A model generated the notes under the pieces. The model made no database searches, had not been told where the DNA came from, and saw only the letters and a list, made by a program, of their open reading frames with translations. Both the position numbers and the translations under genes were made by a program. DNA of 64,000 nucleotides from Blasia pusilla (taxonomy: Eukaryota), in contig CM114271.1 in the NCBI GenBank assembly GCA_050084515.1, positions 24,490,001 through 24,554,000 on the forward strand. Direction: 5' to 3'. Shown piece by piece: positions 10,331 through 60,490 of this stretch (the first letter of the stretch is position 1; each line of letters opens with the position of its first letter).

Positions 10331-10364
10331 CTGCCTTCCTGGGTCTTTTGCGGCTGATTTTCCA

Positions 10365-17100: not shown

Positions 17101-17685
17101 TGGAAATCTCTCGGAAAGCTCTAAAAGATGGCTAGAACTAGCCTTAGGCATTAATCTAGCCGAAACGGATCCAGACGGCTGAATCGACCGAGAAAGCCCT
17201 AAAAAATACCTCCAAAGTTTTATCATCGTCAAAGCTCCACTTGAAATCTGCACCCACTGAGCTCTAGTAAAATCTCCTTCTCCCAAACTGAAATTGTGCC
17301 TTCTCTTGCCTCTCTTCTCTCTTCCAACACCAAGAATTTCAAGTGATATTCTCCTCCCGCTTTGATATCATGTGGAAAACTGCTAAACGATCATAACTGG
17401 TGGAAAACGGCTCTCACACATCCACACCACCATAGAGAACAAAATTTGCAATGAGAGAATGAGTGGAGGTTGGTCCTCTTCTCAATTATATAGGGTATGT
17501 ACAAGCAACCCTAACCCTACTCTTAACCATAGTCTCGAGTTATACTAACTGTGATTAACTAATCATAGTTAAGATAATCGTGCTTAACTGACTAACCAAG
17601 ATTAAACTTCCCTACTTCGTGTGAGTACCAAATATAACAATTCAGGTGTCTCATGAGCTTGACTGTAACTCAATCTTCAATAACA
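14194..17685 (-). mobile_element. Ty1/Copia LTR retrotransposon, 5' half (LTR, PBS, gag, PR, INT), cut at the RT start by element A
   Basis: gag MGQELW...ARKLQLK (16061-16768). Integrase ELIHSDVW..PQQNGVAERKN..KLDPKSERCIFIGY (14609-15250). Ends at EPSCFEEA. Met-type PBS (tgatatcaaagc) at ~17359-17370. LTR 17371-17685 bounded by TG...CA. Confidence 0.9.
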
Positions 17686-20600
17686 TGTATAGTGACATGG
17701 AGGGGGGCTCTAATTCAGAGTAAGAGCCAAGACTTGGTTGGAGCAGGATTAGTGGAGATGTCGCATGGAGAGTATGCATCTGCCACTATCAGGCCCGCTA
17801 AGAAGGATGTGCATGGCAACTGGATGGATAGGCGGATGTGTGGAGATTACCGCCCTATCAATCGGCAGACGAAGTCCGATAGGTATGCTATGCCCACTCT
17901 TGAGGAGATCTTTGATGCTATTGGGCATGCAAAGGTCTTCATTTTGCTAGATCTTCAAGTCGGATATCATCAAGTGCCTATAAGATTGGAGGACAGGCAG
18001 AAGGCAATATTCTGGGGCATCAATCCTCACGGGAAGGATTTTTTGTACCAGTGGCGGTTCTTACTATTTGGGTTAAAGAACGCCCCGGCTAAGTGTTAGA
18101 GGGTCATGGATAGGATCTTGGCGGGTTTGGATTTTGCTAGGTGTTATATTGATGACGTCGTAGTCTTTAACGCCACGGTTGAGGGTAATGTACAATAAGT
18201 AACAGAATTGATCTTTTTACAATAATTTAATGAGTTCAATCCCCAAGAGGATCATTGTTTGGTGGAAAGAGAGATCAAAATTACAATTCTCTGGTAATAG
18301 TTGTATTCAAGTGGAATAATTTAGATTCAATGTTTTATCAATATCTTCGAATCTTTCTTAGTACCAAGGTTTCTTTTCTCAATTCTCTCTAGTGGAGTTG
18401 ACAGCATGCTCAGGTAGATTTCCTCTCGTCATCAAGAAACCTCATAGAGATTTCAACAAGAAAGTTGGTTCAATCTTTGCTGCTAAGTCTGGACCTCTTT
18501 TGCTTCGCTTGAGGACGAAGCTCTTTCTCTTGATCTGAAGACGAAGCGCTTCATTCTTTGTTCTTGTTCCATGGGCTTCATTCTTCGTGCTTCGATCAAG
18601 AGCGAAGTACTTCTTTCTCTTCTTCTTCATGCTTCGTTCAGGAGCGAAGCACTTCATACACAAGTTCTTAACAGAGCTTCGTTGTCTTTTCGAAGCTTCT
18701 TGCTGGGTCTTTAGACTTCGTTATTGTATTTTCCTCTCCTCTCAAGCAAATCCTTGATTTTCTATCTCTCTGCCTTGTCCTTGGAGCTTCGTGATTCACT
18801 TTAATCTTACTCATTCTTCTCCATAATAATATATAATAATAACCATAATATCAAAATCATAGTGTATATACAAGTCTTCTTTGAATAAAAATATGTAATT
18901 CTTCAAAAGTACAAAATTGTGGGTATCACACGCCCATATTGAGGAGACCGATCAAGGGACGTCCTTTCCAGTTGCATACCAATTGGAGCATGTTGGGGCT
19001 TGGAGCGGTGTTCATCCAACATGACGATGATGGTAGAAAGTTCTTGGTGGCTTATGCTTGTCACTCGAACAACGCTATAGAGGCAAAGTATAGCTCGTAT
19101 GAGGGTGAGTGCTTGGCTGCAGTGTGGGCTGTCGCACATTTCAGGTGTTATCTATTCGACAACCCCTTTACCATCATTACTGATCATCAGCCACTTAAGT
19201 GGTTGATGGAGTCCGATAAGCTTATAGGCAAACTTGCAAAGTGGGCTCTTTTGTTGCAGGATTATGACTTCCAAGTGGTGCATAGAGCTAGAATGCTCAA
19301 CCAGGATGCAAATGGTTTGAGCCGTAACCTATGCCAAAGTTAGAGATGCGATTGGAGCTTGTTGGCATGGAGAGAGTGATGAGAAGTTGGTGCTAGGATG
19401 GCACGCGTCAGCCTATTTGGGCTTGTTGGCTATGGAGAGCCAGATTGCTGAGACTTCGATGGCGAGGTCTGATGGAGAGTCCTTAGATCGAGAGGCCGGT
19501 GAGGAGACGATAGGTAGCCGAGATATTCATGACGATGGAGTAGTCTTGGAGGACCTACATACTAGCAGCGTGGCGAGCATAGTACGTGCTAGAGAGCGGG
19601 ATCGGATCCTACAACCTGCTAGACAGTTCCGGTGGGAGGGAACACATGTGTTGCGAGTGTGGGAGGATGGTAGAGTACGTGAAGTGCCTCATCATTCATT
19701 GAGAGCTCGTTTGGTGCATCATGCCCAAGAGGAGTTGGGTCATTTTGGAGTGAAGCGGACGTATAGCTTGCTCCATATACAATATTGGTGGGGAGGACCT
19801 TTACCTTTGACGGAGCGCCATAGTCGTTATGTATTGGTGATGGTCAAGCACTTCTCGAAGTGGATAGAGTTGGTTGCATTTCGTGACAAAGAGAGTGAGG
19901 GAGTAGCGTATGCCTTCCTAGATCAAGTGTTGAGTCATTACGACGCACTAGTTGAGGTGTTGACAGACCAAGGTACGGAGTTTCGTGCTTGATCACGCCT
20001 TGTGTGATCAGGCGCTAATCGACCACCGCACCACTTTGGGAGATCATCCTCAGGCGGATGGACTAGCGGAGAGGGTTGTGCAGATGGTGAAGAGAGGATT
20101 GCGCAAGTATGGCTTGCAGAGAGGTCACATAGGAGATTGGGACTTTCATTTGCCGTGGTTGGCGATGGGATACAGATTCAGTAGGCAAGTATCATGGTTG
20201 CAAAAAAACGGAGAAGTCCTTCCTTAGGACGAACCAGTTTGGAAATGTCCATGGACATGGGTTCCAAGAGGTGAGACCCATACTTTTAGTCCATGATGGA
20301 AGGCAAGGACTTGATGAAAGGAGCAATGAGGTAGGAGGGAATGGAGGTGGAAGGAAGAGGAAATGGGGGCAGTATAGAACAAGAAGGCAAGTAAGGGGAT
20401 TGAGAAATAAGGGAAAGGTGAGGCCCATACGGACAAGTCCTTCCATAGAACGGACATGAGTCCACAGACATGGACATATCCACGGACACAGACTTTGTCC
20501 AACTTTGTGTAAATATGACTCTCGGCCATAAAGCAACAAGTATGGTGAGAAAGACTCTAAGGATGCCTACCGACTTGTGTCTGTGACATGGATGACAAGA

Positions 20601-40900: not shown

Positions 40901-43900
40901 TCCGGAAGAGTCGTAATGAAATCCATGCTAATGCTTTGCAAGGGTCCCTCCAGGATTGGCAAAGGACGAAGTAAGCCTTGTTTCTTGGCATAAGAAACTC
41001 TGTTTGCCTGACAGGTCACGCAAGTCTTCACATATTGAGCAACATCTTCCTTCATGTTGGGCCAAAAGAACCTCTTGGCCAAAACAGTAAGAGTGGATTT
41101 CTCCCCTTTTTGTCTCGCCAAAGGTCCATAATGACATTCCACAAACATCTTGGTCCGTAGCTTGCCTTGGCCTACATAGATCATGCTCTGCTTAAAACTT
41201 AGCAAGCCGTGTCTCAAACTTAGATTGGCCGCCTTCTCGCCCCACTTCAACTTCCCAAGCTACTCACTCGTTTGCGCATCCTTCATGTATCCTTCACGAA
41301 TCCTTCTTTCGAGGTCTGTTTCATTAGGGAAAATGGCTCTCAACACTTGTGTCGTCGATGGCATATGTTCATCCCTGCGACTTAACGCATCTGGAATGAC
41401 ATTGTCTTTCCCCGGCTTGTGGGTTAGCTCCACATTTGTCAACGCCAAGGTATCATGCCATGGAAGATGCTTTGGTGTAACGTGATCCTGGGTCTCAAAA
41501 TACTTGAGCAATATGTTATCGGTGAATACTCGAGTCTTGTGAAGTCCTAGATAGTGACGCCACTTCCTCAAGAAATGAACCACTGCGAGCAACTCTTTCT
41601 CATGAGTGGGCCATCTCCTTTCGGTGTCACTAAGATTCTTGCTCTCGTATGCTACATGTCTCCCTTTTGCACCAACATTCCTGCAATCGCAAAATCACTA
41701 GCATCAATGTGCACCTCGAACGGTTGGTCAAACTCTAGCAGCTTCAGAACTGGTTCATGCGAGACGATCTCTTTGACTTGATTGAACGCTTTATCCACTT
41801 CCTCAGTCCATGTTGTGTTGACAAACTTTGCGGTCCAATCTGTGAGAGGTTTCACTATTCCCGAAAAGTGTTTCACGTATGTCCGGTAAAATTGGACCGC
41901 TCCGATGAACCTCCTCATCCCCTTACAGTGGAAGGCGGTTCTCATTCGGCAATCGCGCTTACCTTCTCCATGTCTAAACTCACTCCATCTGCACTAACCA
42001 CATGCCGCAAGAACTTGATCTTCTTCAAACCGAACTCACTCTTATCCGCATTTGCATACAGCTTGTTTGCCCTGAGTTTCTCAAACACCCTCTTGAAATG
42101 TCGAGCGTGCTCCTCTAGTGTTTTCGAATAGATGAGTATGTCATCTATGTAGATGATCACAAACTCATCCGTCTCCTTATGAAAAATGGAGTTCATCAAA
42201 GTGGTGAATGTTGGAGGTGCATTACAAAGACCGAAAGGCATTACCACAAACTCGAACGAACCGTATCTCGTCCTACACTCAGTCTTCTCTACATCCGCTT
42301 CGGCAACCCGAATCTGATAATATCCTCATTTCAGGTCAATCTGGTTGAAATACTTGGCACCTGACAAACGATCAAAGAGGTCATCCATCCTCGAAAGAGG
42401 ATAGTTGTTCCTTATCGTCACTTTATTCAGCGCCCGGTAATCAACACAGAGTCTCAACTTTCCATCCTTCTTCTTCACAAAGAGGACGGGTGCTTCATAA
42501 GGTGACTTGCTAGTTCGGATGTAACCCCTCTCTAGGAGTTCACCCAATTGTTTCTTCAACTCAGCAAGTTCTTCTTGATTCAACCTATATGGTGCCTTTG
42601 AAGGTGGTTGAGATCCAGGTATCACCTCTATCTTATGATCAACTGCCCTATGTGGTGGCAACTCAGTCGGAAGCTCGTTAGTCAACACATCTCCAAATTC
42701 TTTCACAACTCTCTTGAGTGTTTCAGGGATTCCCCTTGAAGCTGAGTACTGATCTCTACATCTTGCGCTTGCATCATCCTCTACTTGTCTCATCAAGCAA
42801 AGGAATCCTTCCTCTAACTCGGCCAAACTCGTCCTCGTGATGGCGTTCACCAACTCCGTCTTTCTAGGAACCTCACGAACCAATCTGACGTCCGTCCGTT
42901 TTCCGTTAACCAAGACGCTCAACCTCAAAGGTCTTTGCCTTAGTTCCACCTCATATGCATCCAAGAATGTGTTCCCCAAGAATCCATTGATTTTTTCCAT
43001 GTCGCTAAGTGTGAAATTATCCTTCAACTCGAATACTCCGCATCCCATAACTAGCCCTAAAACCAGCTCTGAGGTCTGGTGGGACTTGCCTCCCGCGAAT
43101 CCTACCCTAATGGGTTCATCTGCCTTAGTGGTTGGCAATCCCAACATCTTCACGATTCTCGGGCTCAAGAATGAGTGTGAAGCACCTGTATCAACGAGCA
43201 ACATCACATCGCGATTAGCGATCTTGGATCCTAGGTAAACCAAATTGGGCGTTCTCTCGGTGACTTGGAGAGATGCATCTAGATCTCCTGCCGATAAGTG
43301 CTTAGCAGCAAACGCAATCATACTCGATTTACTAACCTTGGGCCTTTCACATTCCTTAGCCATATGCCTGGGTTCCCCACAATTGTAGCAAATCACTTTG
43401 GCGTTTATTGACTTCGGGAACATCGGCCCTCTTGGCTTCGCGTTGAGTTCCACTCGTTTCGCTGCTGGGGCAAGAGACCCTCCGTGGTCGCGCTCACCCC
43501 CATTCCAAACCCTCTTGGATGTCCCTTTGTTTTTTGGTAACTTAGAAAAACTTTTCAGCTCAGAGGGTTTTTGGTTTTGGACTTCATCGTCCCCTATCCA
43601 CTCCGCTAGCCTCAAAAGCTCCGCGCACGTCTCTGGAATGTGAGGCATAAAATAGAGGGCCTTTTTGGCACTCGGTTTGAGTCCACTTAAGAAGATCACC
43701 TTCTTTGTAAACTCACCCGTGGAAAGTGAGCTCATGAGTGCACTTAACTCTCGCACATAAGCACTAAGGGATCCGCTTTGGCGCAACCTCATAAGCTCCA
43801 TGCTATCGCGATACTCTTGATATTCCAGAGGGAATCGGTTACCAATCAACTCCTTCAAATCTTCCCAACTGAAAGTTCTTCCACGGCCCAGATGTTCTTT

Positions 43901-45395
43901 ACGGTGAGTCGTCCACCAGTGGAAGGCGTGATCCTTCAGAAACGTGACCGCTACAGTCACCTTGTCTTACTCATTTCCCTTTTTTGCTTCGAAATAAAGT
44001 TTGAGTTCCATTAGAAACTCGCTCACTTTCCGAGAACGCCCCATTTATCTGAATGGCATTGGCAAATTTGTCTTACAAAGCTTCTTGCCGGAACTAGAGG
44101 CTCCATTCGACTTGAGTTCTACCATCACCCTGCTCTATTCGGCCATCTGGTCCAGCATCACCTTCATCAAACCCCTCATTTGGGTATAAAAGGCAGGGTT
44201 GTTAAGTTTGGAGCCAAAGGCCCCGCGGAAAGATTTGCGTTTGAACCATGCTCTTGACTTGGACTCGGCACTTTGGGAGTTGTAATCTCTACCTCAGGCT
44301 CATGGTCCGTCATTAATTTGTCTCTCGTCTTTTTTGCTTTGACTCGTGGCTTCCTCCGTTCTTCGCCCTTGGTCGCCATTTGTGAGTCCTCCCTTTCTCA
44401 GATCTACTCCTCGTCTCTTGCATTCCTCCTCGAGCGTCGTTGTCGTCTTGCTACCTTGAGTTCTTCTCAAACGTCCAGATCTTCTACGACCACAAGTTCA
44501 CACTCATCAAGGATTTGCTCTAATACCACGTGTCCTCCGCCTACTCTCCTTGAACTTTAATCTTGTTGTTGCGGAAGCGTGTGTTCAGTAGGTCACGCTC
44601 TCAACATTGATCTGCATCCAAACACACACTCTGGTTAGTCAAGTCTTGAATCAATCAGCGCGCTAACTTTCTGAGTTCTTGTCTTGTTCTCTCATCAAGC
44701 TCAACCTTCCTTGTTTCGCGGTTTACAACATGGGAAAGTCTCAAAAGACTCGAGACAGACTTTATAGTCGGTTCAGGAATCTCAAACGGCGTTTCGCGCC
44801 TAGTGGTTCCAACTGTCCCATGGACATCCAATGAGTCCCTAACCGAGACTCCTACAAAGTGAATCTCGGTTCAGAATCTAAGTGTGGCATACAAAGTCCA
44901 CTCCCTTGGATTAAGTTTGGGTTTCAAGTTCCAACGCCAAACTCCCATTCCATACGTGCCTCTGAGACGCCGTTTCGTGCTCAAAGTGGGGATTCGTGTT
45001 CCAAGACATCTTGGAGAGAATCCTCCCTTACTAGTACTTCTGGGAATATCCAGGGTTCCCTACATTCAAGGAAAGACATCCGGGCCTCTCTAAACGTTAT
45101 GGTCCAAAACACATTCAAATTCCCCAAACGTTAGTCGTGTTCCAAAACTGGTTCTCATCTCTTTGGCAACCAACCTTCCAAGACTCAACTCATCTCAAGT
45201 CTTGGCTCGCGTTTGGTCTAGGTTTCCTGGTTGCGACCACTAACGCATGAAACGTAAAACTCTACTCCACGTTTCGTCTCTTCGACTTTTCCAATAGAAC
45301 TTTCCAAAAGCCTCTCCAAAGCGCGAACATTGCAGCGTGAGTCCACTTGAGTTCTGATGTTCCGCTTGGCTCCTATTTGGTGTTGTTTGGCGACA
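34937..45395 (-). mobile_element. Ty3/Gypsy chromovirus D, two LTRs, carrying a nested insertion
   Basis: LTRs 34937-~35920 and 44531-45395 (TG...CA), near-TSD ttagg/ttaga, Met PBS at 44517-44528. gag-PR-RT ORF 42326-43960 (LVDTGAS), RT YIDD at 41942-42247, RH and INT at 40200-41950, chromodomain at 36320-36640. Confidence 0.92.
36646..40194 (-). mobile_element. Nested, internally deleted chromovirus related to D
   Basis: ATCAC TSD at 36641-36645 and 40195-40199. Full 3' LTR 36646-37648, PPT 37649-37660. RH-INT ORF 38943-40127 and chromodomain ORF 38336-38683 (EFEVETIL..YLVKWKGY..ATW). Only ~85 bp of the 5' LTR remains (40110-40194). Confidence 0.92.
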
Positions 45396-45867
45396 TTAGA
45401 AGAGGGTCGCTTCTTCTTTTAGATTTAAAATAATTATGACCTTAACAAGTAGGTATTTGCATAAATTCTTGATGGGGAGGGCCCCACATCCATCATTTTT
45501 TTTCGGAAGTAGAAAGGCCATCCACCTCGACAATTTGATGATGTGTTATCTTGTAGTTCACTTTTTTCTAGAGTCTATTTTTTCTTTTCTTTTTCTATTA
45601 CCGCATTGGAGAGTGGACTTGGATGCTCGTTACATCTGTCATGTCTTTTAGGATAGATCGGTGAGATCTAGTAGAGGGCCTTAGTGAGTAGTGGAGGACA
45701 TGCTTAGTAGGTCGAGGATGACCTGCTGAGGCCTCGGGAAACCTGAGAGAGCAGATTTTCCGTTCGTTTTGGCTCATTTGGAGCCATTTTGAAGAATTTA
45801 CTATTTTAGATAAGTACCATTTTGAGTATATGATTGATTTTTTATTTTTGGTAAGTGGCCATTAATC

Positions 45868-46110
45868 TCCTACATGAGGTCAAGAGCCAAAGAGCTTGGG
45901 AGAGGGGAGGGATATACCTCAAGGAGAGAGAGCTTGAGAACTCATTCTCTCTTTGTTGAACCTCTTGGCATGAGGCAGCAAAGCTATGGTCTTGCTTGCC
46001 TTGTGTGTGTAACCCAAGCCTCTCATTAGGAGAGTGGGTTTTTTTTTATATTGAGAGAGACATTTGAGAGTGCACATATTTGAGAGCTATGGTCTTGAGA
46101 GATTGGATCT
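45868..46110 (+). repeat. PPT plus LTR fragment of the C/E family, inverted relative to element E
   Basis: agaggggagg-gatatacctcaaggagagagagcttgag matches ~20727-20900 directly and 46790-47061 as reverse complement. Confidence 0.8.
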
Positions 46111-46639
46111 TGATTTACAAAGAGAGAATGAGATGAGTGAGAGAGCTTCATGGGGGAGCTCGTTGGTGACTTGCTGGTTTTGTAGGTTGGGGATTATCTT
46201 CCTTGTTCAGCGGTTCATGGGAGTGTTCACCGGAGCCGGAGCCACTCATTTTTTATATTTCCTTTGCCGATTTTTTGTATGGAAGAGTGGCCCGCAGAAG
46301 CGCTGCCCAATTTTTGATAGCGATTGAGTATGGGGGCAAATTTCCCCATGCTTGTGCTCTCGGGAGCAACATATAGCTTGTTGATTTTTATTTTCACAAA
46401 TTTTACATTTTTGTTGGGAGAAATGAACGCGAAAGCCTTGCCAAAATTTATATAGGAGAAAGAAACGTTGGGCTTTACGACAATCCCCGTCAAATTTTAC
46501 TGAAATGTCCGATTCAAAATATTTTTTGACGTTGTCGTAGATCGTGAAGTTGTGCACATGTGCAATTTCGAGTCGTGGGCAAAAATTTATGGTCAATCTT
46601 GCAAAACTGCCATTGCTAAGAAATTTTAGGGTTAAATTG

Positions 46640-49600
46640 TTCAAACCCTAAACCAGCCGCCGTGTCGTGCGCATACACATCTCTACACAACATACATCGC
46701 TGTCACCGAACACACACACAAACACGGACAATCTCATGCTAACTCATGGCATCCAAATACAAAGGCAAGAAGTACCAAAATATCTCCAATAAAGTAAGAT
46801 CCAATCTCTCTCTACACCATCTCTCAAAGGTGTGCACTCTCTCTCATGTCAAACCAAACCCACTCTCCTAATGAGAGTCTTGGGTTACATTCACAAGGCA
46901 AGGGACCATAGCTTTGCCGCCTCATGCCAAGAGGTTCAACAAAGAGAGAATGAGCTCTCAAGATCTCTCTCCTTGAGGTATACCCCTCCCCTCACCCAAG
47001 GTCTCTCCATGGTAACCTATTCTCCCAAGTCACCTCCTTGGCTCTTGACCTGATGTAGGAGGTCAACTTATCCTTGAGCAACTGAAATGCTCGCTCCTGC
47101 TCATCCCCCCAGTGCCACTCGTGATCCACCTTGGTTAGCAAGGTCAGCGGCTTTGCAATCGAACTGAATCCCTTGATATATCATCGATAGAAGTTCGCCA
47201 ATCCCATGAATGCGCTAACATGGCTCACATCTGTAGCGCGTGGAATGCGTGAGATAGCCTCTACCTTTGTTTGATGAACAACAAGGCCCCCTAGGTATAT
47301 CGTATGACCCAAGTACTCAATCTGGTCATAGAAGAACTTGCACTTGCCTGGATGTAGCTTCAGCCCATGTAATTGCAATCGTCAAAACACCTCCTCTAGA
47401 TGTCGCTCATACTCCTCAACCGTGGCGCTAAAGACTACGATGCCATCAATATAACACCTAGCAAAATCCAGACCAGCCAAGATCCTATCCATCACCCTCT
47501 AAAACTCATCCGGGCGTTCTTTAACCCAAATGGTAAGAACCGCCACTCGTACAAACAATCCTTCCCATGAGGATCAATGCCCCAAAATGCCGTCTTTTGC
47601 CTGTCCTCCAATCTGATAGGCAGCTGATGGTATCCGGCTTGCAAATCCAATGAACTAAAAACCTTTGCATGGCCAATCGCATCAAAGATCTCCTCAGGGG
47701 TGGGCATGGCATACCTATAAGACTTCCTTTGCCGATTGATAGGTCGGTAATCCCCACACATCCGCCTATCCGTCCAGTTGCCATGCACATCCTTCTTGGC
47801 GGGCATGACAATGGCATATGCATACTCCCCATGTGACATCTCCACTAGTCTTGCTCCAACCAAGTCCTCACTCCTACTCTGAATCAGATCCCTCTCCATA
47901 TCACTGTACATGTAGGGTTGTCATAAGATAGGCGTATAACTCGACAACTCAATGCAGATCCCCGGTCCCTCCAACGTACCCAAATCCTCCATGCTAAATG
48001 CAAAGAAGCTCCTATAACTCGTGAGGAACTGATATATTCGGCGCTGCTCTCCTCCTGTCAACTTAGGGCCCATACCTGGCTCCCAAGTCTCCATCGTGAC
48101 TACGGTAGGACTCTCCCGAGCGGATATCGGTGGTTGCTATGGTGCAACCGCGTCTTGAACAACAACACTCGACCGCTCTCCTACAGCCAAGTGCAAACTC
48201 TGATCTCATTCACATGCATTGCCGGGAACCACGCTCGATGCTGTGGCTATCATCTCCAGGCGTACCTGCAAAACATCCCAAGAAGTCCAAGGGTGTCTCT
48301 CTCGATCTCCCCTGGTGTGTCGATCTCCTCAGGTCTCGCCCACAGCCACTACCTCCACCGTCTTGGTAGGCATGGGGCTCACCAACGCAACTGCTGTGAT
48401 CTGGTGCGATCTCATCCGACGCTACTCAGCCACTCCCAAGCTGAAGATCCGTGTCAAGCAGTTCACGTCCATCGCCTGACCCAAGACATGGCATCGTGAT
48501 GCCTCTGATACTTACGATACTTCCGTCACTCCTGTGGGAAATCCCATCGCCCGCTCTCTCTCATCGACGTTGGGCTCCACTGACCTCTAAACCTGGTTAT
48601 CCCAAACCAAGCCTGGATTGGCCTCCTTGTGTGCATAGGAAGCAAGAAAACTCACAAACGTGGGAAAGGCTGCCCGCGTCTTGCCTACCATGTTGGCCAC
48701 AGTCAATGGTGGTCGATCATCATGCCTCACTGCCTATGAGCGACGACCTGGATCTAGAATGGAATCCACTAACAAATAGGAGGGGCGCTCCACTCTCGCA
48801 TACGCCCTCCATAACACCGCATAGGGCACCAAGTTGGTCCACCATAGACGCGGGCGATGGGCTCTAGAACCTACACTAGCCGCATCCAAGAACACTGGTG
48901 GGCCGATCCACGCACGCACCTAATGAGCACTCATCATCACCCGTGACCTGGAGTCTCCTAAGATCGGCACATTCTCCAGAATGTAGGCTGGAGAACAAGA
49001 CTGGTGCTCTTGCAACTACCGTAAGACCCTCAACATCTCCCAAAACAACCTGGACCGAGTGTTAGCCAACCCGCTGCCTCGTCCAGCACTCGATTGGCCT
49101 TGACATGGCCAATCGGCAATGACCAAATCAATGGTGCCTAACCGGTCTAAGTCCTGCGCCCCCAGCAACAAAATATCCCTCGGTAGGGAACTCTGGTACC
49201 CGTGTACGGCGCACGCACACAATAAGTCGGGAAAACATAGGCGTAACAGCGCCACATGTCGTAGTGAGACGCTCCTCGCAACATCATCATTCTCCACATA
49301 CAGGTATTGCTGCACTTGTACTCTTGCCTGCAAAACAACAGCTAACCCCGTGCTAATCCCTCCAAAGTGATCTAACATTCAAATACCCTCCTCCGGGGTA
49401 CACCACACAATGGGTGTGGTATCCAAGGGTGTCATCGTAGCACTCCCTGCTACCTCGGGTTCCTCAGGAGGGTGTCATGCTCTGGTTGAAACGCCTCGCT
49501 CCATGCGGTTTGCACGTGCTCATCTGCCAATCGTCGAAGCTCCTCAATCAAGCCCCACAGCGGCACCTCTCCTCCACAAAATGATGCGGTTACCATAACA

Positions 49601-52600
49601 CTCCTCGCCATAGAAATTTTAGGAATGGGAGTATCCTCTGCATAGACATGTCCCTCAATCAAATCACTAGGCCAATTGATGGCATTGCTAAATGCTGCTA
49701 AGGTCGCCATCTCTCCTAGCCGTTGCTCAATCACTGCACATCTGAATCAAACAAGTAATGAGCTAAGGCGCCCATCACATTACTGCCATCATGGTCTGTA
49801 GGACGCTGACTCTTCCCAATAGTCCCGGGAAAACCCCATCAGGTATAACACTGCTCCACCAACCAAGACGTCGTAGGACTCTACATCAGTCACTATCGCC
49901 TTGGCTCGCACCACAGACTCATCTGTAGGATGTCCGAGGAAAATCCTCACCACAACCTCATGTCGGGTGATATACTGTGTGGTACTCGCTCCACCCAAGG
50001 ATGTCTATATCCGGAATGGACAACGCTCCACATCGGCTCTCGTCAAGCCCAATCCTCTCAATGACGCTTTCCCCAACATAAGGGGTTGCGCTCCTGAATC
50101 CAACAAGACGCGTTGCGGACTAAAAGCTCTACCTCCCAGACTCACCAACTAGAAAATCTCTCCAGCAACACAACACCAATAAGCCATGGCACACTCTATC
50201 GCGGGTCTAGTAGGCATCTCTGCCATCCTAGCAGCCGCAAACTGCCATGAATCTCACGTGGATGGACCGAGCATCCGCTCCAAGGGCAGGTCCATCACCT
50301 CCTCTGCAATCACCTCTGAACGTGATGCAAGAACTCCAACTCCACGCTCACATAGCGTAGCGGCCAGCCGAAAAGCCTCGGCGGGCGTATCCCCCAACGT
50401 CATAACATCGGAAGCAGAAAATAATCGAGTGCAGTACACAATGGTGGCCGCCCCCAACAACGTGCTCGACACATGCCCCTCCTGAGCATAAATAATAGGA
50501 GTCGTTGCACTCGCTTCTCCCATGGCCCTCCGTGCTTGCATACCAACAACATCACGAACTCTCTAGGAACTCTGATCAGGACCCATCGATGGGGTCCTCA
50601 TCGCCTCGGACAACGTGAAAGACTGAGGAAGCCTAGTCTATTTCTTGGCTCCCCTTCACTGTGGATCCAACTCTATGGCTGCTCCATGCATCACAATTGC
50701 GGCAACCTCCATCTGGGCAACCCCGCACATCCAACCAGGACCCTCCATATCTCTGGCTGCTCCATATGATGTCGATGCCACGGATGGGGCATCGGGTAAT
50801 CTCAATGTCATAGCAGCAATCTGCTCATGTAGCTGATGTATCTGAGCAACCATCCTAGCCTCACACTTTGCATCTCCCTCAACGCGTCTAGGTGGTAGGA
50901 CTCTACCTCCTCCACGGGCAGCTCTACCACCCTGTCGGGAAACTCCAGCTCCTCATCCCCCAACGCGACCACCTAGTGCATGATCTCTAGGCCCACCTGG
51001 ACTGGCTACTCGCTCTGGCCCTCGGTCCGGACATAACTCAAGATGTAAACTGAAACACCTGGCGCGTGTATTACCATACCTTTAACAATAGTCACACTGA
51101 TAACCTCCTGGTGCACCACCATCTCCTCCTCCATGCAGAGGCACACGTCCATGACCCTAACGAGTGCAATCGCGTTGATGATGGCTCCACCACATGACGA
51201 ACAAGTAATAGTAGGCGGCTGCTACAGAGCCGCATATGAAGGCGCAGGTCTCTGTGGCACGGCCTCCCGATATCCTCCCTGAGCTCGTAGTGCCACAGTC
51301 AACCTATCTCAGAGTCCACGTTGCTGCACAGGTAGTGCAGACAATCGTGACTGCTCTCGCCCAGAACCCATGGTGGCTACACTCTCCTCCGCCATGTTGC
51401 GCTCAATGTTCTCGATGGTCTTGAAAACATCTCTCAACGTACGGGAGGTGTTCATAAGAAGCACCCCCTCCCGCACTCGTGTCCGCAGGGTCCGATCCAA
51501 CATCACATACAATGATTGGATAGCCTGAGCCTCTGTCACCCCTTGAGTGACGTTGATCAACCGGCGCAAGCGAGTGTAAGCCTCACGAAAACTCTCACCG
51601 GGGCGCCTCTGGAAGTCGTGGATGCTCCGCAACTTCTCCGTCCGTACCCTGTGGTACTTGGCCCTCAACTCAGCAAAGAACTCAACCTCAGCGTTGAACG
51701 TGGGACGAACCCGAATAGACGGTGCAACTACTCCCGTGCGAGTGACCCCTCCTAAAACGTCACGAGTGGAAGAGGAAGTAGCCTCTCCTCACTCCTCGTC
51801 CTCATCTGGGAATGGCTCCGTCCATCACACATAATGTGGGTCATAGTAGAGCCTCTACGCCTCGATGTCACGTGCATATCTCTGAGAGAACTCATGGTAA
51901 TCGTCCATGGGTGACCCTCTAAATGTTGGAACATACCGTTCCATGCTTATAACGGGTTGAACTCTCTAGAGTTCCCGGCCTGCTGCGAGTTGCACCAACT
52001 CCTAAACTCTGCTATGAAATCGTGCAACTCAATCGTGCCTACTGCACCTGAAAACCTACGGGGTCCTCTAACTTGATCGTCCATCTCGTACGCCCAACTG
52101 GTAGGACCACTCACAATGTGTGGCGATGTGCTCACAAACTCCTCTACACGCTCCCCCTCGTCTGAAGACGAAAGAGAAGGAGATCGAGGTGGTCACTCAC
52201 GTGGAGACCCTCGAAACCTCGCACCACTCCGGGTAACCCTCTAGAGCTACTCTCAAGTCTACTACCTCGCCTCTCAAAATCCTGAAAGGGCGCCATGATG
52301 GCCCTCATGCCCCTCTCACACGATCACTCTCAACCTCGCGAGTAATTCCTCAATCATTCATCCCAAACATGCGGCACTCGATCTACACTCTCCCTCCCCG
52401 AGACGTGTAACATGCAGCAACAAGCGGCGTGGTGCGGCAAATCGACAAGGCTATCATCTCATCGACAACCTACCCTCAACTTTGGACATCCCACACAGGT
52501 CTATGTCCCCTAAACCACATACATAAATAATGCTCTCAGCTTCCACACACCCAATATCCCCAAATAAACCACCCAAATCCCAGAATCTCTCACACGTGCA

Positions 52601-52780
52601 GGGTAAAGGACCAGAATGGGTAACCTGAACACATGTCGATGTTGCTCCTCAACAACTTCAAATCTTGACCCCAACTTGTTCGTGGAGACAACTCCTCCAA
52701 TCAGCAAGTCAAACTCCTCCCGTACTGACGCTGCTTAAAACTCCTTGATGGACAGTGCGGTTCCAACGGAACGGTGGAGG
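46640..52780 (-). mobile_element. Ty3/Gypsy element E: gag-PR-DNMT-RT, RH/INT deleted, partial 3' LTR
   Basis: gag fragments 51309-52135, protease RVLLDSGAQP at ~50090-50115, DNMT 48435-49390, RT 47070-47950. RT end joins directly to the PPT (46983-46993) and LTR. Confidence 0.85.
48435..49390 (-). pseudogene. C5-cytosine DNA methyltransferase domain embedded in Gypsy pol (in-frame stops)
   Basis: Motif I LDHFGGIS, IV LVIADWPCQG, VI AYILENV (~48969-48989), VIII AHRPRLWWTNL, IX ERERAMGFP, X R.HVLGQAMDVNCL. All lie in the same frame as the downstream RT ORF 47492-47911. Confidence 0.9.
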
Positions 52781-53149
52781 TGCAGTAAGAGGAGAGGAAG
52801 AGAGGAAGAGAGGAGAGAGGAGAGAGGAAACTACCTTCAACCGAAATAGATACTTTTTTTTGAAGAGAGTTTCCGTTGGGTTGAAGAGATGAAACTTTTT
52901 GTGTGAATTTTTTTGCACTTTTTTGTTCATTTATTAAACAATCCCACAGTTTTTTTTTCCTCTTCCATATTTTGGCAACCCCTGTGAGTCCGACGAGTTG
53001 CAAATTGCACAAAATTTACAAAACTGAAAAATCAGTGGAATCATAAGTGTGGAACCAATCACTTTTTCCATCCAAGGTCTGGAAAAAATCTATCATTTGC
53101 CCCGGGCTGAATAGAGTTCAAGCTCACAGTGAAGGTTGAGAAAAAAATA

Positions 53150-56100
53150 AAAGTACAATCTAAAACCTCATTTTGCATCCTCAAAGTGGTTTGTTTAAAA
53201 TACTTGAACTTCTTTGAGGGATGGGGTGGTTGGTGGATTCCTACTCCTACCTCCGACTCTCTTAAAACTACCAAACAACACATAGTACATGTGCTTACAA
53301 GGGAAATACCTTTTGCCACTTGTCTCTCTTTGGACAAAGTCATCACATGAACATGTGGGAAAGCAACACATGTGCACCATATACACCCCTGTGACACTTG
53401 AATTTACAGTGTTGCTCCTGACCCAATACATCCTTCCTATTCCATTGCCACTCAGGACATCTTTCGTGGCGATGATCTCCATTTTTGCCTCCCGAGCTGC
53501 TGCTATTCATTTTGCTCTCTCCACCGTTGGCCTACACATTCTGTTTCTCTTCACCCCATTTATAGACTCAAACAGAAATAATGGATTGAGATCATCCACC
53601 TTCTCCGGGTACATGTTGACATCAATCTTGGGTTGAATACGAAATGCGAAGGTCTCTGTAATGCGAACATGCTCCGAACTTCCCCCGTCTACGAGTCTGA
53701 AACCGGCACTTGTAAGATTGTCCACGCCGTCTTGAGTGCGATTCGTACTGCGGCGATGGGCCAAATCGTGGGGGTATTCCCGGGAGCTCTAATGGCAGCC
53801 GGATAAGACTTCCGGAAAGCGCAAGATTCATTTGGGCAGAAGAAGTACTTCAATTGATCCCCGGTCCTCGTGAAACGATCAAAGGTTTTGAGTCCCCAAA
53901 ACCCAGGCAGCGTGATCGTCGATCCTTTATGATTCTTATTTGGGAAAGTGCCGCATGCTCTCCTAATGCCATCGAGATCTGCCCTGTCAGAGGTGGGTCC
54001 ACGTCTGGTTGCTCCGAGATATATGCCACCGTTTTAGGTTGCAATCCACCTCCATTACCGGAATCCCATATTGTTGAACCACCCCAGTGACAGGATGTTG
54101 CGAACTTCCAGCAACGGAGGGCTTTTGAAATAAAACATTCACTGATTTTGGAGAAGTAACTCCATCACAGATTTGGGACGGGTCCGGGGTCCCCGAATAC
54201 TTGGGCGGTGTAATTTCCTCATCCAAATCAATCACCGGATTTGTTCCTCGATGCTGCCTCTTCACTTGCCTGAAGTCAAGATACTTATCTGGTCTCCACG
54301 AGTCTCGTTCGGACTGCTCTACCACCATCTGTATGGGACGTCTTGAAACCCGCCCACGAATATCCCCACCTATGTGTACGTCTTGCTCGAGTGGAGTTCA
54401 CTACGCACCGGTTGAAGGCCGACATACAATTTTTCATCACCAGATCTCATAGCCGCCCTGACATAGAGCTCGTAGATCGACGGCCCTTTTCCTTTTGTTA
54501 TGCCTTTTGTGAGGAAGATATGAGATGCTGCAGATTGTAGCATTGCTCTTGCCTGGTCTTGTTGGCATGCCTCCACAAGTGAAATTCGTTGGCATGCTTG
54601 TGATGACCTCCAAGAGGAATGAACACTTTCTGCTCCACTTGTGTTGGGGCAAAGGGCATTTTCATGAACGTTCAATCCCTGCAACGACGGCAATGTTAGA
54701 AGGGAACGAAAATAACCCAGGAGTCAAAGAAATAAGCGACCTGTCGGAACCAGACGGGTTGCAGGCTCGAGGCATCCCATGAACGACTCTGCGACACGTC
54801 GGGTCCCGACGTGTTGTAACCTTAAACCCACCTACTGCAACCCGTCGGAACCCGACGGGTTGCAAGGCCGAGGCATCCCATGAACGACTCTGTGACCCGT
54901 CGGGTCCCGAATGGTTGCACACTTGGGACCACACCAAACATCTGGATGCAACCCGTAGGTTTCCGTCGGGTTGCACACTCGGGAAACCCGTCGGTTTCCG
55001 TCGGATTGCACACTCGGGCAACCCGTCGGTTTCCGTCGAGTTGCACACTCGGGCAACCCGTCGCATCCGACACCTTGCTTGGTTTCTTGGGTTTGAATTC
55101 CATATAATTCCCACGCTTCTCACCCTGAGCTACAACTTTACAAACAATTCTCAGCGTGAGCTTGACAAGACAAAATAGTGAACTCACCTGCCCCATGAAG
55201 TTTCCCCATTGTCTCACACGTACAGTCCACCAACTCAACCAAGAGCACGACTCTTTGTACTTCCCCTCAATCGCATGCTTCCTCCACCACCCATGAAGTT
55301 CTTCCTGGCAGTCCATGGCCTGCTTCAAGGTTTTGCTGTCCTTGCAGCGTTGGAGTAGAGTCACATGCTCTGTCCTCTTATTCTCCTTGATGCAAGATTT
55401 GGTGTATCGGATCACAGACTGTTGCCAATGGAAAGCATCCGACCTTTCCCTCTCCGGTTGAACCTCTCCACCCCAGAACACTTCCCGGATAGCAATCCAC
55501 CCAGGTTGTGCATTGTCCGCCATGAACCCATAAATTTCCGGAGGTGGCTTTTTGTTTTCCTTCACCACCTCCAATAAGAGTGACCAACACATCTTCAAAC
55601 TGCCAACGTCTTCTGCCTTTACTTCACACACAAATATAGTTTTGAGTCCCTTCTCCACATGGTCATAAACGTGAGCACCCATCGTCAACCATCCGTTCAG
55701 CACTCTGTAGCAAATATCAAAGTTGACCCAGCTCCCGTAAAGATCTTCCCCTTTCCTCATTCGATCTATTAGATCGAGGCCACTCGAGGGACGTGTGGTT
55801 GACATTTTGAAGACATAGGCCCTGGATCCCTCGCCTCCTTGGCCCATGAACTGCCATCTCTGAATGAATGGAAATCTGGAGTTGGCCTTGATTCTGGCGA
55901 TGGCATCCATTTCGGCCGTCTTTCCATCCAGAACTCGTATCTGACGCAACAAATTCCGGAAGCATTAAGGATCAGCGAGAAATGCGAGATTTTCCCAAAG
56001 TTGTTTCTCCTCAACCGCCGTGATCTCGCCCTGTCCAGGAATTCCAAGCAATTGTTCACAAATTTGTGATGCCGTTGTGAGCTTGATCACCCCGGGCTTT

Positions 56101-56900
56101 GAACGCGGAGAGTTTCTGAAGACCTCGGCTACTTTCTTCGCCACATCCTCCTTGATGTGTCTTTGAATTGCATCGGTCACAGGATGAGTGTGGGAGCCAA
56201 CATGAAGCGCCACCTTGTATACTCGGCGTGGAGCCCAAGTCATGGACAATGAAAAATATGTATGCAGGACACGCTCCAACGAAGGGCGATGCGACAATGA
56301 GGACATCGATGGCCTCCCGGCGGTATTGTGGCACCCACCTCGTATGGAGTTTCTGCATTCTTGGGGGAATTGCGGCGTATTGACTCGCCCGTTTGCGCTC
56401 TAGATACGAGCATGCTGGACTTCTACACTCCAAGGCTCCCACGCATTGGCGGCGGGAGACAATCCAAGGACCATCGGGATGGAAGCACCGGTCCGTTGCG
56501 TACCTGCACCATCGATGACAATCAGACTTTCTGTCCATACCCTTCAGGCGTCCTCCATCCTTCTTTTGAGCAGGAGCAGCAAGTGGAGGCAACTCAAAAA
56601 TGCAATTACCATTGTACGTGGGCTGCAGCTCATTGACAAGAATGTGCTTGAACATTTTCAAGGCGTAGACGAAAGCAAACTATTGCCGATACTCGCAAGA
56701 GAACGAGTAGGCGGACACAGGCCCGATTGGTGTCCAAGCAGATCGCCGAGGTTGATAACATCCGGAATCTCTTGAGGAAGAACAACATTGTTACGAGTGT
56801 GCAAAGTTGGAGTCGAAGCCAGATCTGCAGAGCTTGGAGTTGCAAACGTAGAGCTCGGAGCACTAGGAAATTCTAGACCGTCTACTTGGGAAACAGACGA
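53150..56900 (-). pseudogene. MULE-type DDE transposase with N-terminal GCM/WRKY-like Zn finger and C-terminal SWIM finger, frameshifted; intron 54679-55187
   Basis: N-term RRQCVGALECRSPAC..GACPAY..HVGSHTHP. Catalytic core NFDICY, FMADNA, DAFHWQQS. After splicing (GNFMGQ|gtgagt...gcag|GLNV) comes GAESVH. SWIM CSCDDF..PCKH in ORF 53195-53482. Confidence 0.85.
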
Positions 56901-59900
56901 ATTCAGGGAGGGCCGTAAACTTTGTATTGACCATTTGCTCTGGTAGGAGATTCCATACTTTACGGTGCGAGGTCACTTTGGATGGACCGTCTCACCTATT
57001 ATGTCTTCCGTACCTTCCACCCTAACATCTTTGGATACAAAGATGGTTCCAATTGAAGAAGAAATCAAGCAGACAGAAAATTTTCATCCATTGCTACGAA
57101 AGACTCACGAGCTTGGGGTCGAATGATTTCGATTGAGGAAGGGCATAAGATGACCGCCACAAGTGAGCTTAACATAATTATCCATTCCAAGAAGATTCCT
57201 ACGAGGAGAGGCGAGAATGAGAATGAGAATATTTAATTTATAGTGAATAGGAAACAAATACTCTGATGATTTTTCTTGACAAGATGAATTCGGTGGGGAG
57301 ATTATCGACACAATGGATCAATTTTGTAACACATTCAATTGTGTTGCAATATGTTACCGGATTTGGGAAGCATAGGGTTGCGCATCACTTGGAACCCGTC
57401 GGAGTCCTGGTAACTCAGAAATTACCCGAAGCTTACCGAAGCCTACAACCCGTCGGCATCGGACAGGTTGCACGCTTCTGCTAAACATTGTCGAAGCGAG
57501 CAACCCGTCGCTCTCCGACGACTTGCTGCGATACCGCTCCTTCTTGCTCGAAGATGCCGGAGGCGTGCAAACCGTCTGTTCCCGACGAGTTCCGCGGGTG
57601 CCTCGCCTTTTAGCCCAAAGACGGCGAGGCGTGCAACCCGTCGCCGTCCAACGGGTTGTGCAAGGGCGTCGCCTTGTGGTGCAGCCAGCCAAACTCCGAC
57701 GACTTGCACGGGAAGCCATCGTTCCTAACCCTTGATGAGGGAAGCGTGCAACCCAACAGTCTCCGACGGATTGCCCAAAATACGTCCGTTCCGTCCCAAA
57801 CACGCGGAGGCGCGCCAACATGTCGGTCTCCGGCGGCTTGCGCGGGTACCTCGCGTTGTTTTCGAAGACGACGGAGGCGCTCAACCCGTCGGTCTCGGCG
57901 GGTTGCTCGCCCACGCGTGGCGATTTTCGCAGATTGCGAGGCGTGCAACATGTCGGTCTCGACGGGTTGCGCGGGTACCTCGCGTTCTTTTCCGAAGACG
58001 ACGGAGGCGCTCAACCCGTCGGTCTCCGACGGGTTGCTCGCGCACGTGGTGACGTACCCAGGATGGCGGAGCCAGACAACCTGTCGGACTCCGACGGGTT
58101 GCGATTTTTCACGTCCGGACTTCTGTAACATTCGGCACGTCGCCGTCGAAAGGACGACGGGACCCAACGGTCAGCCCAACGGCTAGAAAAGTATAAATAG
58201 GGCAGAAATCGCTCATTTCCGGTTTCTCATTTCGCGATCTTCATTCCTCACTCCTCACTCTCCCGCGCAGCAGCTGATCAGATATAAAGGGGCATTTCAC
58301 GCGGCGACACATCGCGAGTCGATAGGAGGGAACGAGAGCGAGACGGTTCGACCGAGCAATATCGGGACGATTCGAGCTAACCATCAAGGCGAGACGAGCT
58401 CCCATCTCGACATCAACAAGGCGACTGATCAAGGGATTTGTCGTGGGCATAGGTGGAGGCATTTCCGGCAAAAATGACGAGGAAAAAAACACAATCCAAC
58501 AAGTCTGGGAGCTTCACTCCCAAGTCCATTAGGACTCTGCGTCGACTTCTCTCCCGGCCTCGTTCGCGAATGAAATTAAGCGGCAGGAAATCGAGGAGCG
58601 GAAAGGGAAGCGGAGATGCACAACCAAGTGCTTCTGGCGAGACGTGTTCAAGCGGCGCTAGATAAAGCGAACGAAGAGGCCGGGCGTCGCAGGCCTTGAA
58701 GAAAAGGATCGCCGGCGAAAAGAGAGAAAAGAAGCGCCGGGCGCGTCGGTGAGGAGGCGGAATTGGCTAAAGCGAGGCGGAAAAAGCGATAGCCATTGCG
58801 ATAGCCCAGCCCATCCAACCGCAAGTGTTGAGATGCGGGAAATGTCCCCACGAAGTCGGGGACACAATCAACATAGTGGAATCAACACCGAGTTCAAATC
58901 GATGACGACGAGGTCATGAGGAGATGACGCAGGAGGTCAGCGTGGAGATGGTGGACATGGGGAAGAAACCGGAGAGCGGTCATTTCGACTCCAAGCCGGC
59001 GGAGGACATCGACCTCTATCGGATCGACGAGTTCCCGATCGATTTGCCCCTATCTCAGACAAGTTAGTGGTCAAGAAACCGACTCCATTTTCGGCGGGTA
59101 AGAGAAGTTAGGTTTTTAATTATGTGAATTGCAATTCATTGGGATTTCGGTGTAGCTTATTCCTCTTGTCCCATTCGGCGGGTGGTAAAGCGCAGATGGC
59201 ACTCATGGAGGCCCAACGCCCGAGGATTCCACTCTGCGATTAAGGACAATGGAATACGTCCCAAAATCTGATCCAGCGAGGACATCGCAAAGCTAAAACA
59301 ATCGGCGCATAAAGCATCCCTCGTGGGCGAGTTTTCCTCCCTTCTATGTTCGGCCTTACGGACGAGCATGGAACCCAAGCTCAGTTACCGAGGAGGACTT
59401 GGAAAATCTCGACACATTCTACGGAGGATGCGAGACCAAGACTTGAGAAGGCAAGTTGAGGGCACGGAATTCAGCTGGATGAGGAATCTACATTTCTTCA
59501 TCTCGGGATGGAAATCACGAGTTCATGGCGTGGACCAAGTTTGCGGAGGAGCGCCCCAACTCATTGAGGCACATTTCTGCGTGAAGGCGGTGGTCCTTCA
59601 CCCATACCCTCATCACATGGCGGCGGTGGAGATGGCAATGCATGCCATGAACACGTAAGTATCTTTAACATTTTCGCGGCTCGTCGGACTCGGCGAGTTG
59701 CTCGATTGATGAATGGGTTAGGTTTGTTTAGGCGAAAGCAACTTCGTCGGACTCGGCGGGTTGCTAGAAAACACTGATTTTCGGATGTTTTTAAGATTGA
59801 TTTTCGTCGGACTCGGCGACTTGTTTGATGGAACATAAATTTAACTAGTTTTTGGCCCAAAGCAAACCGTCGGAGTCGACGGGTTGCTGACGAGCCGCCT

Positions 59901-60490
59901 TGTGAGGTTGTTTTTAAGAATGCAACTTCGTCGGACTCGACGAGTTGCTCGAGTAACAGCGAGGTTTAGAAGGTTTTGCCCCAAAGCAACCCGTCGAAGT
60001 CCGACGGGTTGCTTGCCTCAAACCATTTTTGGCGAAATCAACCCGTCGGACTCCGGACGGGTTGATATGGGGAAAAATAGCTTTGAGGCAAGCAACCCGT
60101 CGGACTTCGACGGGTTGCTTTGGGGCAAAAACCTTCTAAACCTGCGATCCTCGAGCAACTTGTCGAGTCCGACGAGTTGCATTCTTAAAAAACAACCTCA
60201 CGAGGCGGCCTATCGAGCAACCCGTCGGACTCCGATGGTTTGCTTTGGACCAAAAACTAGTTAAATCTATGTTCAATCATACAAGTCGTCGGAGTCTGAC
60301 AGTTGCAATCTTAAAAACATCCGAAAGCGTCGCGATCAAAGAACCGTCGGAGTCCGGCGAGTTGCTTACCTGGCATTAGCAAATCTGAATGCAACCCGTC
60401 GGACTCCGACGGGTTGCATCATTTAGCTTGTTGCTAGAATCCGACCCTGAGCTGTGATGACCCGTCGGAGTCCGACGAGTTGCAGGAACC
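54740..60490. repeat. Clusters of the palindrome GCAACCCGTCGGA-N-TCCGACGGGTTGC
   Basis: Perfect copy at 60391-60417. Many variants at 54740-55070, 57370-58130 and 59680-60490, plus copies or half sites at ~52975 and 62372-62450. Confidence 0.95.

Follow-up and report, generated by a model that had tools for sequence, protein, structure and literature searches.

Retrotransposons of the Gypsy-DNMT3 kind have been known since the work of de Mendoza et al. (2018, PMC5890265), which is cited here from the part of its text that was examined, and they pose a paradox, since they carry the silencing enzyme of their hosts. In KnitGypsy-Dnmt3 of Klebsormidium nitens, that text reports a DNMT3-type, non-rearranged methyltransferase with conserved catalytic residues inside a Gypsy polyprotein. 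SymbioDIRS-Dnmt3 of Symbiodinium is given there as the only retroelement DNMT for which de novo CG methylation has been shown, and only the dinoflagellate DIRS-borne enzymes methylated CG. DIRS elements are described in the same text as A-coding region-B-A-B, and the repeats of the K. nitens Gypsy-Dnmt3 elements are said to have the same structure. DNMT3 members embedded in retrotransposons "as previously reported in streptophytes" are mentioned in the accessible part of a 2025 paper (PMC12344493), and the corresponding part of a 2026 preprint mentions "streptophytes (Gypsy-DNMT3)". Here, we analyzed a stretch of 64,000 nucleotides from Blasia pusilla (GenBank assembly GCA_050084515.1, contig CM114271.1, positions 24,490,001 to 24,554,000; hereafter "the window", with positions counted from its first letter), which holds the remnant of an element of this kind. 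An earlier note, made from the letters of the window alone, had described a long terminal repeat (LTR) retrotransposon at 47070..50200 carrying a cytosine-5 DNA methyltransferase inside pol, and had pointed to precedents in Klebsormidium and dinoflagellates, which indeed exist (PMC5890265). We have very little doubt that the feature is a decayed, 3′-truncated Ty3/Gypsy-type copy, and that the first open reading frame (ORF) of its family encodes gag, an aspartic protease (PR) and a DNMT3-type methyltransferase. For the best explanation overall, we estimate a probability of roughly 0.8.

The six cytosine-5 methyltransferase motifs listed in the earlier note were all found, in canonical order, in the minus-strand frame starting at 49378 (FGGIS, WPCQ, ENV, HRPRLWW, ERAMGFP and LGQAMD). 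The stop-read-through translation of 48389-49378, with X at its 6 stops (P0001), matched PF00145 with an E-value of 1.4e-9 and a score of 38.3 bits, where the gathering cut-off is 22, which bears out the check that the note had proposed; the longest stop-free piece alone scored 28 bits on the same profile. A phmmer search against PDB sequences yielded 34 matches at E ≤ 0.01, the top 29 of which were DNMT3A, DNMT3B or DNMT3C. The best of these, DNMT3A (6.8e-12), aligned over query residues 52-313, nearly the whole domain, and the 5 weakest were plant DRM-type methyltransferases (E ~0.006-0.007). We also made an AlphaFold2 model of P0143, a natural intact homologue, from an alignment of 19 sequences (mean pLDDT 62.3, with 70-89 in the core). 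Among the matches listed for this model by Foldseek (35), all were DNMT3A/B/C, the best with an E-value of 5.4e-14, and the target template-modelling scores were 0.57-0.64 for catalytic-domain chains and lower for longer chains. Judged by sequence and by the predicted fold, the closest solved relatives are DNMT3A/B/C, and the DNMT3-type assignment, for which the earlier note had pointed to motifs VIII and IX, stands.

We then considered how the domain has been maintained within its family. In 20 aligned family domains, which share 34-65% identity with the window domain, motif I, AGWPCQ, ENV, GSxAHRxRxxWTNL, ERExAMG and LGQAMD are near-invariant; the window reads ADWPCQ where its relatives read AGWPCQ. 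Nine sequences of the first ORF (ORF1) were aligned and compared by sliding-window identity, using only pairs with less than 60% overall identity. In these diverged pairs, identity was 36-59% over the DNMT, 17-32% over gag and 35-46% over PR. Because the DNMT windows are more conserved than gag and the motifs are near-invariant despite the divergence, the identity pattern is that of a domain long kept by selection, although it is no proof of catalysis. The ORF1 of the relatives contained only CCHC, PR and DNMT by Pfam, with none of the reader domains of host DNMT3 (PWWP or ADD).

The element lies on the minus strand, and its remnant extends from ~52084 to ~47066 (Table 1). The feature is thus present where the earlier note had placed it, but the remnant is larger than the span given there, with gag homology from ~52084 and reverse transcriptase (RT) down to ~47066. 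The order in the window copy is gag, PR, DNMT and RT; from the gag-PR-RT-RNase H (RH)-integrase (INT) set it retains gag, PR and RT, with the DNMT between the latter two. In tblastn, Marchantia P0106 runs colinear to the window from 52084 to 48272. The gag region also gave a weak match to Retrotrans_gag PF03732 on the ORF at 51309-51788 (E 0.0042, below the cut-off). The protease segment of P0127 aligns to 50121-49795, and no Pfam match was obtained for the window protease piece itself. The DSG protease motif lies upstream of the DNMT, in a frame different from that of DNMT and RT. From the DNMT, the frame continues into an RVT_1 match at 47920-47492, in agreement with the earlier placement of the domain between the DSG protease and RT and in the frame of RT. 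RT keeps the frame of the DNMT down to ~47500 and is in a different frame thence to ~47066. The tail after the DNMT carries an HPW..W motif that is common to the window copy and its relatives.

Table 1. Coordinates of the DNMT-bearing copy, of the element that truncates it and of a second fragment of the same family in the window
Feature	Positions	Strand	Remarks
Gag region	51186..52084	-	tblastn of Marchantia P0106 residues 4-307, colinear 52084->51186, 40-59% identity
Aspartic protease, one in-frame stop	49789..50150	-	DSG at 50100-50092 in the translation
PR-DNMT linker, ~100 residues, no known domain	49450..49746	-	Frameshift between linker and DNMT frame here
DNMT3-type C5 methyltransferase domain, complete from motif I to motif X, with 5 TAG and 1 TAA in frame	48389..49378	-	
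C-terminal tail of the gag-PR-DNMT ORF, ~80 residues	48140..48388	-	TGA stops at 48331 and 48208
Conserved in-frame stop, context TAG CAA CCA	48131..48139	-	TAG itself at 48139-48137
Start of RT ORF and RT domain, cut off before RNase H	47067..48136	-	TGA at 47923, frameshift near 47500
Terminal inverted repeat (TIR) element with long inverted arms, not part of the retroelement	45865..47066		Inverted repeats 45891-46117 / 46790-47004; outer ends approximate
Second fragment of the DNMT-Gypsy family, RT-RH-INT only, no DNMT upstream	17683..20194	+	tblastn of P0108, P0125 and the ORF2 of L059

Relatives of this copy are numerous. A search with the domain among proteins of near its length gave 101 matches with a best identity of 62-63%, the named ones coming from Calypogeia fissa, Sphagnum troendelagicum, Marchantia paleacea and M. 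polymorpha. Among longer proteins we obtained 32 matches, 14 of them from M. polymorpha (960-1333 aa) and the remaining named ones from Calypogeia, two Sphagnum species and Closterium. A DNMT profile recovered 459 clusters (50% identity) at E ≤ 1e-30 and 1908 at E ≤ 1e-10, and a scan of metagenome contigs gave 396 pattern matches, of which 265 encode a relative; 80 loci were kept. By Pfam, the relatives show two domain orders. Type A (CCHC-PR-DNMT-RT-RH-INT) occurs in P0136, P0125, P0127 and Marchantia P0108, and the window copy is arranged likewise; metagenomes contain ORFs that carry this order without interruption. P0136 is a single ORF of 2324 aa, with CCHC at 515, PR at 787-878, DNMT at 969-1266, RT at 1415-1569, RH at 1632-1760 and INT at 1887-2055. 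At locus L059, an ORF1 of 1369 aa (PR and DNMT) is followed by TAG and then, in the same frame, by an ORF2 of 1047 aa (RT-RH-INT-PHD). Type B (RT-RH-DNMT-INT-PHD) is a large and diverse group; a search with its domain gave 95 matches, many in ORFs of 1900-3000 aa. Since the related domain precedes RT in one arrangement and separates RNase H from integrase in the other, the DNMT module has moved within the element lineage and occupies two positions in the polyprotein. A PHD finger at the C-terminus of the integrase was found with both arrangements (P0126, P0130 and P0131, and the ORF2 of L059 and L055). No Klebsormidium-named protein appeared in the near-length, longer-protein or type B domain searches.

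A tree of 38 DNMT domains, rooted at the midpoint and built without rows shorter than 200 aa (Calypogeia_c and Closterium), placed the window copy near the base of a clade with Marchantia, Calypogeia and Sphagnum copies that had 100/99 support. Type A copies without the stop described below, as well as type B copies, lay outside this bryophyte clade. As the root is a midpoint only, we draw no direction of change from this tree. Within the clade, the Sphagnum copies group with those of Marchantia to the exclusion of those of the liverwort Calypogeia, which departs from host relationships and suggests either that the lineages are old paralogues or that elements passed from one host to another. 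Carriage of a DNMT is a feature of the family, of which Marchantia polymorpha, Calypogeia fissa and Sphagnum each hold multiple copies; the domain is retained in copies besides that of the window, contrary to the case that would have refuted the earlier note. The statement in that note that such domains are not standard in land-plant Gypsy lineages understates their range, given these multi-copy bryophyte hosts and the transcription of the family in the host of the window copy.

The relatives further revealed a stop between DNMT and RT. In close relatives, ORF1 ends ~65-70 residues past the DNMT domain, and RT then follows in the same frame. At each of the 53 DNMT-RT junctions aligned, 52 from related loci and one from the window, a stop occupies this position, as TAG in 41 and TAA in 12; the count covers all loci holding the junction, and the three rows excluded were secondary alignments whose primary rows show the stop. 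The two codons after it are CAA CCC in 43 junctions, CAA CCA in 3 (window included), TAA CCC, CAA CTA and CAG TTA in 2 each, and CAA TCA in 1. Firth & Brierley (PMC3542737, in the portion of the text accessible) describe UAG_CAR_YYA as the consensus context in which tobamoviruses and other plant viruses are read through efficiently. The exact CAR YYA context occurs in 8 of the 53 junctions, spread over at least four diverged lineages including that of the window. Annotated proteins of Marchantia (P0106, P0107 and P0111) and Calypogeia (P0103) end at this stop. Because the conserved stop splits gag-PR-DNMT from RT-RH-INT, the DNMT of the window's lineage belongs to the upstream ORF, which is made without readthrough. 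The location "inside pol" given earlier is imprecise: the domain is part of the polyprotein and in the frame of RT, but the stop found at every junction assigns it to the upstream gag-PR ORF.

Internal repeats were examined in 21 related loci. Two of them, L045 and L049, have complete A-B-A-B repeats; L004 ends within its A pair, L046 shows a variant, and no such repeats were seen in the other 17. In both complete loci, the layout is A1-internal-B1-A2-B2, with split direct repeats and with B1 after a purine-rich tract. L045 (5856-15059) has an A repeat of 337 nt, 90.8% identical, and a B repeat of 115 nt, 93.9% identical; in L049 (1676-10805), the A repeat is 342 nt long and 92% identical, and the B repeat 113 nt and 93.8% identical. 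Their ends are TG..CA, starting with TGTCATG and finishing with ACA, and they are flanked by 4-bp direct (target) duplications. The joint between B1 and A2 resembles two termini placed end to end with 2-4 bases between them, as in a circular-form junction. These split repeats coexist with a DDE integrase.

The window copy itself has decayed. Its frame from 49378 to 47495 contains 10 stops, 6 in the DNMT domain, 2 in the tail, 1 the conserved TAG and 1 in RT; as the conserved TAG is expected, 9 of the 10 are unexpected. Two frameshifts place the protease-linker part and the distal RT each in another frame. RT reads YIDG at its YxDD box. Loose ends of RNA reads mark the end of the homology at 47063-47085, and the TIR element abuts and ends the RT homology at ~47066. 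No target-site duplication was found for the window copy, and the sole match to a tRNA-Met-type primer-binding site (PBS) pattern was at 44517-44528 in the neighboring chromovirus. Because of the 9 unexpected stops, the two frameshifts and the truncation of RT by the TIR element, the window copy is dead, an inert relic without function, as the earlier note had also judged. The second fragment of the family (Table 1) has 86.7% nucleotide identity with the RT at 47414-47913. The alignment of its integrase with the ORF2 of L059 (1047 aa) reaches residue 828, short of the PHD finger at 990-1034.

Next, we turned to RNA. Three read runs of the same species were aligned to 46900-52300 at ≥85% likeness, and 2908, 2660 and 3253 reads aligned, most at 85-95% likeness. 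Coverage was found in 30 of 30 bins, the DNMT included, at a depth of ~24-65 reads on the dominant strand. The first mate lay on the plus strand ~10-50 times more often than on the minus strand, which in usual stranded libraries indicates minus-strand RNA, the sense orientation of the element. At 49468 and 49473, where the frame of the window copy changes, single-base insertions or deletions set most reads apart from the window, and nearly all reads carry another letter at the one DNMT stop among the variant sites listed. Since the reads are mostly 85-95% alike and lack the frame changes of the window, it is other copies of a high-copy family that gave rise to the transcripts, and their frames are open where those of the window copy are not; the window locus itself is weakly transcribed at most. 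In a read comparison with the same interval, the DNA contigs of run X1 amounted to 119,226 pieces. When read-versus-window differences were sorted by kind of change, no excess could be assigned to the window copy, because the reads stem from many decayed copies. The observed-to-expected CpG ratio was 0.72 for the remnant, 0.83 for the whole window and 0.28-0.59 for related loci. Such depletion shows that the family's sequences have long been methylated at CG; it does not identify the enzyme responsible.

From the position of the DNMT in the gag-PR ORF, we tentatively derive a mechanism of self-methylation, to which we give a real but less than even chance. In this scheme, Gag-PR-DNMT would be the main translation product and would be packaged in the virus-like particle, the DNMT being made with every Gag-PR molecule and RT-RH-INT only via occasional readthrough. 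The protease would free the DNMT, whose targets for de novo methylation, probably at CG, would be either the double-stranded cDNA just synthesized or the new insertion. The scheme predicts a stoichiometry in which DNMT is at about the level of Gag and far above RT and IN, and natural intact ORFs exist to assay. A more far-reaching version, which we regard as doubtful, would see in the family an old lineage of streptophyte Gypsy elements with an integrase, transcribed in living bryophytes and combining split repeats, a reader on the integrase and an active Gag-level DNMT3 upstream of a leaky UAG, which would pre-methylate cDNA or add to the de novo methylation of the host. If that were true, part of the de novo methylation capacity of bryophytes would be transposon-encoded, and this would be genetically testable in Marchantia.

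Several observations weigh against the reading of the locus as a self-methylating Gypsy element. For the window copy, no RNase H or integrase homology was found on the minus strand below 47066 as far as the unrelated chromovirus, and its 3′ half is missing, not merely displaced; self-BLAST of 44000-56500, and comparison of 52050-54800 with the whole window and with 19900-24000, gave no LTR or split repeats. RNA reads with ≥99% likeness to the window locus numbered only 8, 12 and 4 in the three runs. The AlphaFold2 model of P0143 is of only moderate confidence. For the putative leaky stop, conservation and context are what speak for readthrough; in the largest subfamily, with CAA CCC, the last base departs from YYA, and the more distant copies of type A (P0136, P0125 and P0127) lack the stop altogether. 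In the type B sister group, the DNMT lies between RNase H and integrase, and therefore a place upstream of RT is not essential to the role of the domain. Finally, the DNMT3 domain of the K. nitens Gypsy element produced no methylation in yeast, a result that its authors call inconclusive. In the text examined, this is the sole published test, and no enzymatic activity is shown for any Gypsy-DNMT3 (PMC5890265).

Other roles for the enzyme were considered against this background. It might be directed at the host, methylating flanking host DNA or competing transposable elements, or mimicking gene-body CG methylation at the insertion. The Gag-level abundance expected from the placement of the stop would suit such a role, as would the strong CpG depletion of the family (relatives 0.28-0.59; remnant 0.72 versus 0.83 for the window), but depletion of this sort is expected of any silenced plant transposable element and is silent on which enzyme caused it; we consider a host-directed enzyme unlikely. 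We find it rather improbable that the domain is a non-catalytic module like DNMT3L, which would bind host DNMT3, chromatin or DNA and steer silencing or integration. The inactivity of KnitGypsy-Dnmt3 in yeast speaks for such a module, and the PHD reader on the integrase of relatives suggests a chromatin-targeting lifestyle. However, human DNMT3B failed in the same yeast assay too, a point that the authors stress (PMC5890265, text as examined), and the PCQ cysteine, ENV and the S-adenosylmethionine-binding signature of motif I are near-invariant at 34-65% identity, none of which a purely structural module would need. A third possibility is an RNA methyltransferase acting on the genomic RNA or the tRNA primer of the element instead of on DNA. 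It was raised by the same authors for a LINE-borne DNMT (in the part of PMC5890265 seen) and enzyme and RNA would share the same particle, but sequence and fold match DNMT3 DNA methyltransferases and not DNMT2, which makes this very unlikely. A one-off capture, in which a host DNMT3 fragment was picked up by, or nested beside, a single retrotransposon copy, deserves next to no credence: the window copy is indeed fragmentary, sits in a nest of other transposable elements and has no definable LTRs, but the order is colinear in the uninterrupted ORFs of P0136 and L059, 265 metagenome stretches (80 kept) and 14 M. polymorpha proteins encode relatives, and these relatives form a distinct DNMT clade, with the window copy in its 100/99 bryophyte group, and lack PWWP and ADD.

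The self-methylating Gypsy element stays our preferred account, and the question that it raises is now more tractable. Land plants, among them the genetic model Marchantia polymorpha, harbor the family in abundance; it is sense-transcribed in the host of the window copy and carries its DNMT upstream of a conserved stop. The value of the window copy is that of a pointer to this family only. Literature searches on Gypsy-DNMT3 elements turned up only de Mendoza et al. (2018) and the 2026 preprint cited above. A search with six Marchantia gene identifiers returned no paper, and the searchable literature text held no description of the bryophyte copies, the Marchantia gene models, the leaky stop or the PHD-bearing integrase; supplements lie outside that text and may cover some of these.

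Elsewhere in the window, further elements were observed. The TIR element at 45865-47066 is ~1.2 kb long, with inverted arms of ~230 nt whose segments are 94%, 88% and 79% complementary, and it has a relative of ~310 nt at 20726-21037 that resembles a miniature inverted-repeat transposable element. Both adjoin remains of the DNMT-bearing Gypsy family. Read depth in the first bin of the alignment was very high, which suggests a high-copy family. A chromovirus occupies 34936-45381 on the minus strand (gag-PR-RT-RH-INT-chromodomain), bounded by LTRs at 44530-45381 and 34936-35919 with ~91% identity to each other; 44517-44528 resembles a PBS, and the part beside the DNMT element is 38339-45381. Its interior contains a second RH-INT-chromo block (39000-40100 versus 40600-41700), by nesting or internal duplication. 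Arrays of short palindromic units of ~35-65 nt (GCAACCCGTCGG...CCGACGGGTTGC type) lie at 54736-55063, 57426-58102 and 59661-59952, at the ends of and beyond two long minus-strand ORFs without a Pfam match (54822-55964, 380 aa, and 55965-56399, 144 aa). One pair of these arrays is inverted, and the arrangement as a whole recalls a DNA transposon with its subterminal repeats. Two more retroelements, at 8012-11657 and 14192-16774, both on the minus strand, carry no methyltransferase; one is of Gypsy type (CCHC gag, protease, RT-RNase H, long open frames), and the other of Copia type (gag_2, Pol_BBD, rve). The only clear host gene in the scanned part of the window is an uninterrupted ORF of 595 aa at 29006-30790 on the plus strand (Pkinase, E 9e-39), whose nearest Atlas clusters are streptophyte kinases.

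Finally, we compared the family with known systems. Animal DNMT3A/3B/3C provide its best sequence and fold matches and share a domain of ~320 aa whose motif order I-X is not rearranged as it is in DRM, but identity is only ~20-22%, and here the domain is embedded in a gag-PR polyprotein without PWWP or ADD. Plant DRM2 is a weak match only (E 0.006). The stop resembles the type I leaky stop of tobamoviruses (PMC3542737, text as accessible) in lying in frame between two long ORFs and in its context, TAG CAA CCA in the window and TAG CAG TTA, TAG CAA TCA and TAG CAA CTA in other lineages. It differs in marking the gag-pro/pol boundary of a retrotransposon instead of an RNA virus replicase, and in the CCC that the main subfamily has as its third codon. 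Like chromoviruses, some members of the family have a chromatin-reader domain at the C-terminus of their integrase; this reader is a PHD finger in the relatives (L059, L055, P0126 and P0130) and not a chromodomain. Neither the leaky stop nor the PHD finger is mentioned in the text of PMC5890265 examined, from which "PHD" is absent. SymbioDIRS-Dnmt3, as described there, likewise is a retrotransposon DNMT3 in one ORF with RT and has split direct repeats, but it belongs to dinoflagellate DIRS elements, which have a tyrosine recombinase, and the authors regard its acquisition as independent, whereas the family described here has a DDE integrase (rve). KnitGypsy-Dnmt3 shares with it a DNMT3 within the Gypsy polyprotein across copies, and the relatives L045 and L049 have the same A-coding-B-A-B repeats; the hosts here, by contrast, are land plants, namely bryophytes. 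Through its published description, this repeat layout is our strongest link between the bryophyte family and the Klebsormidium element.

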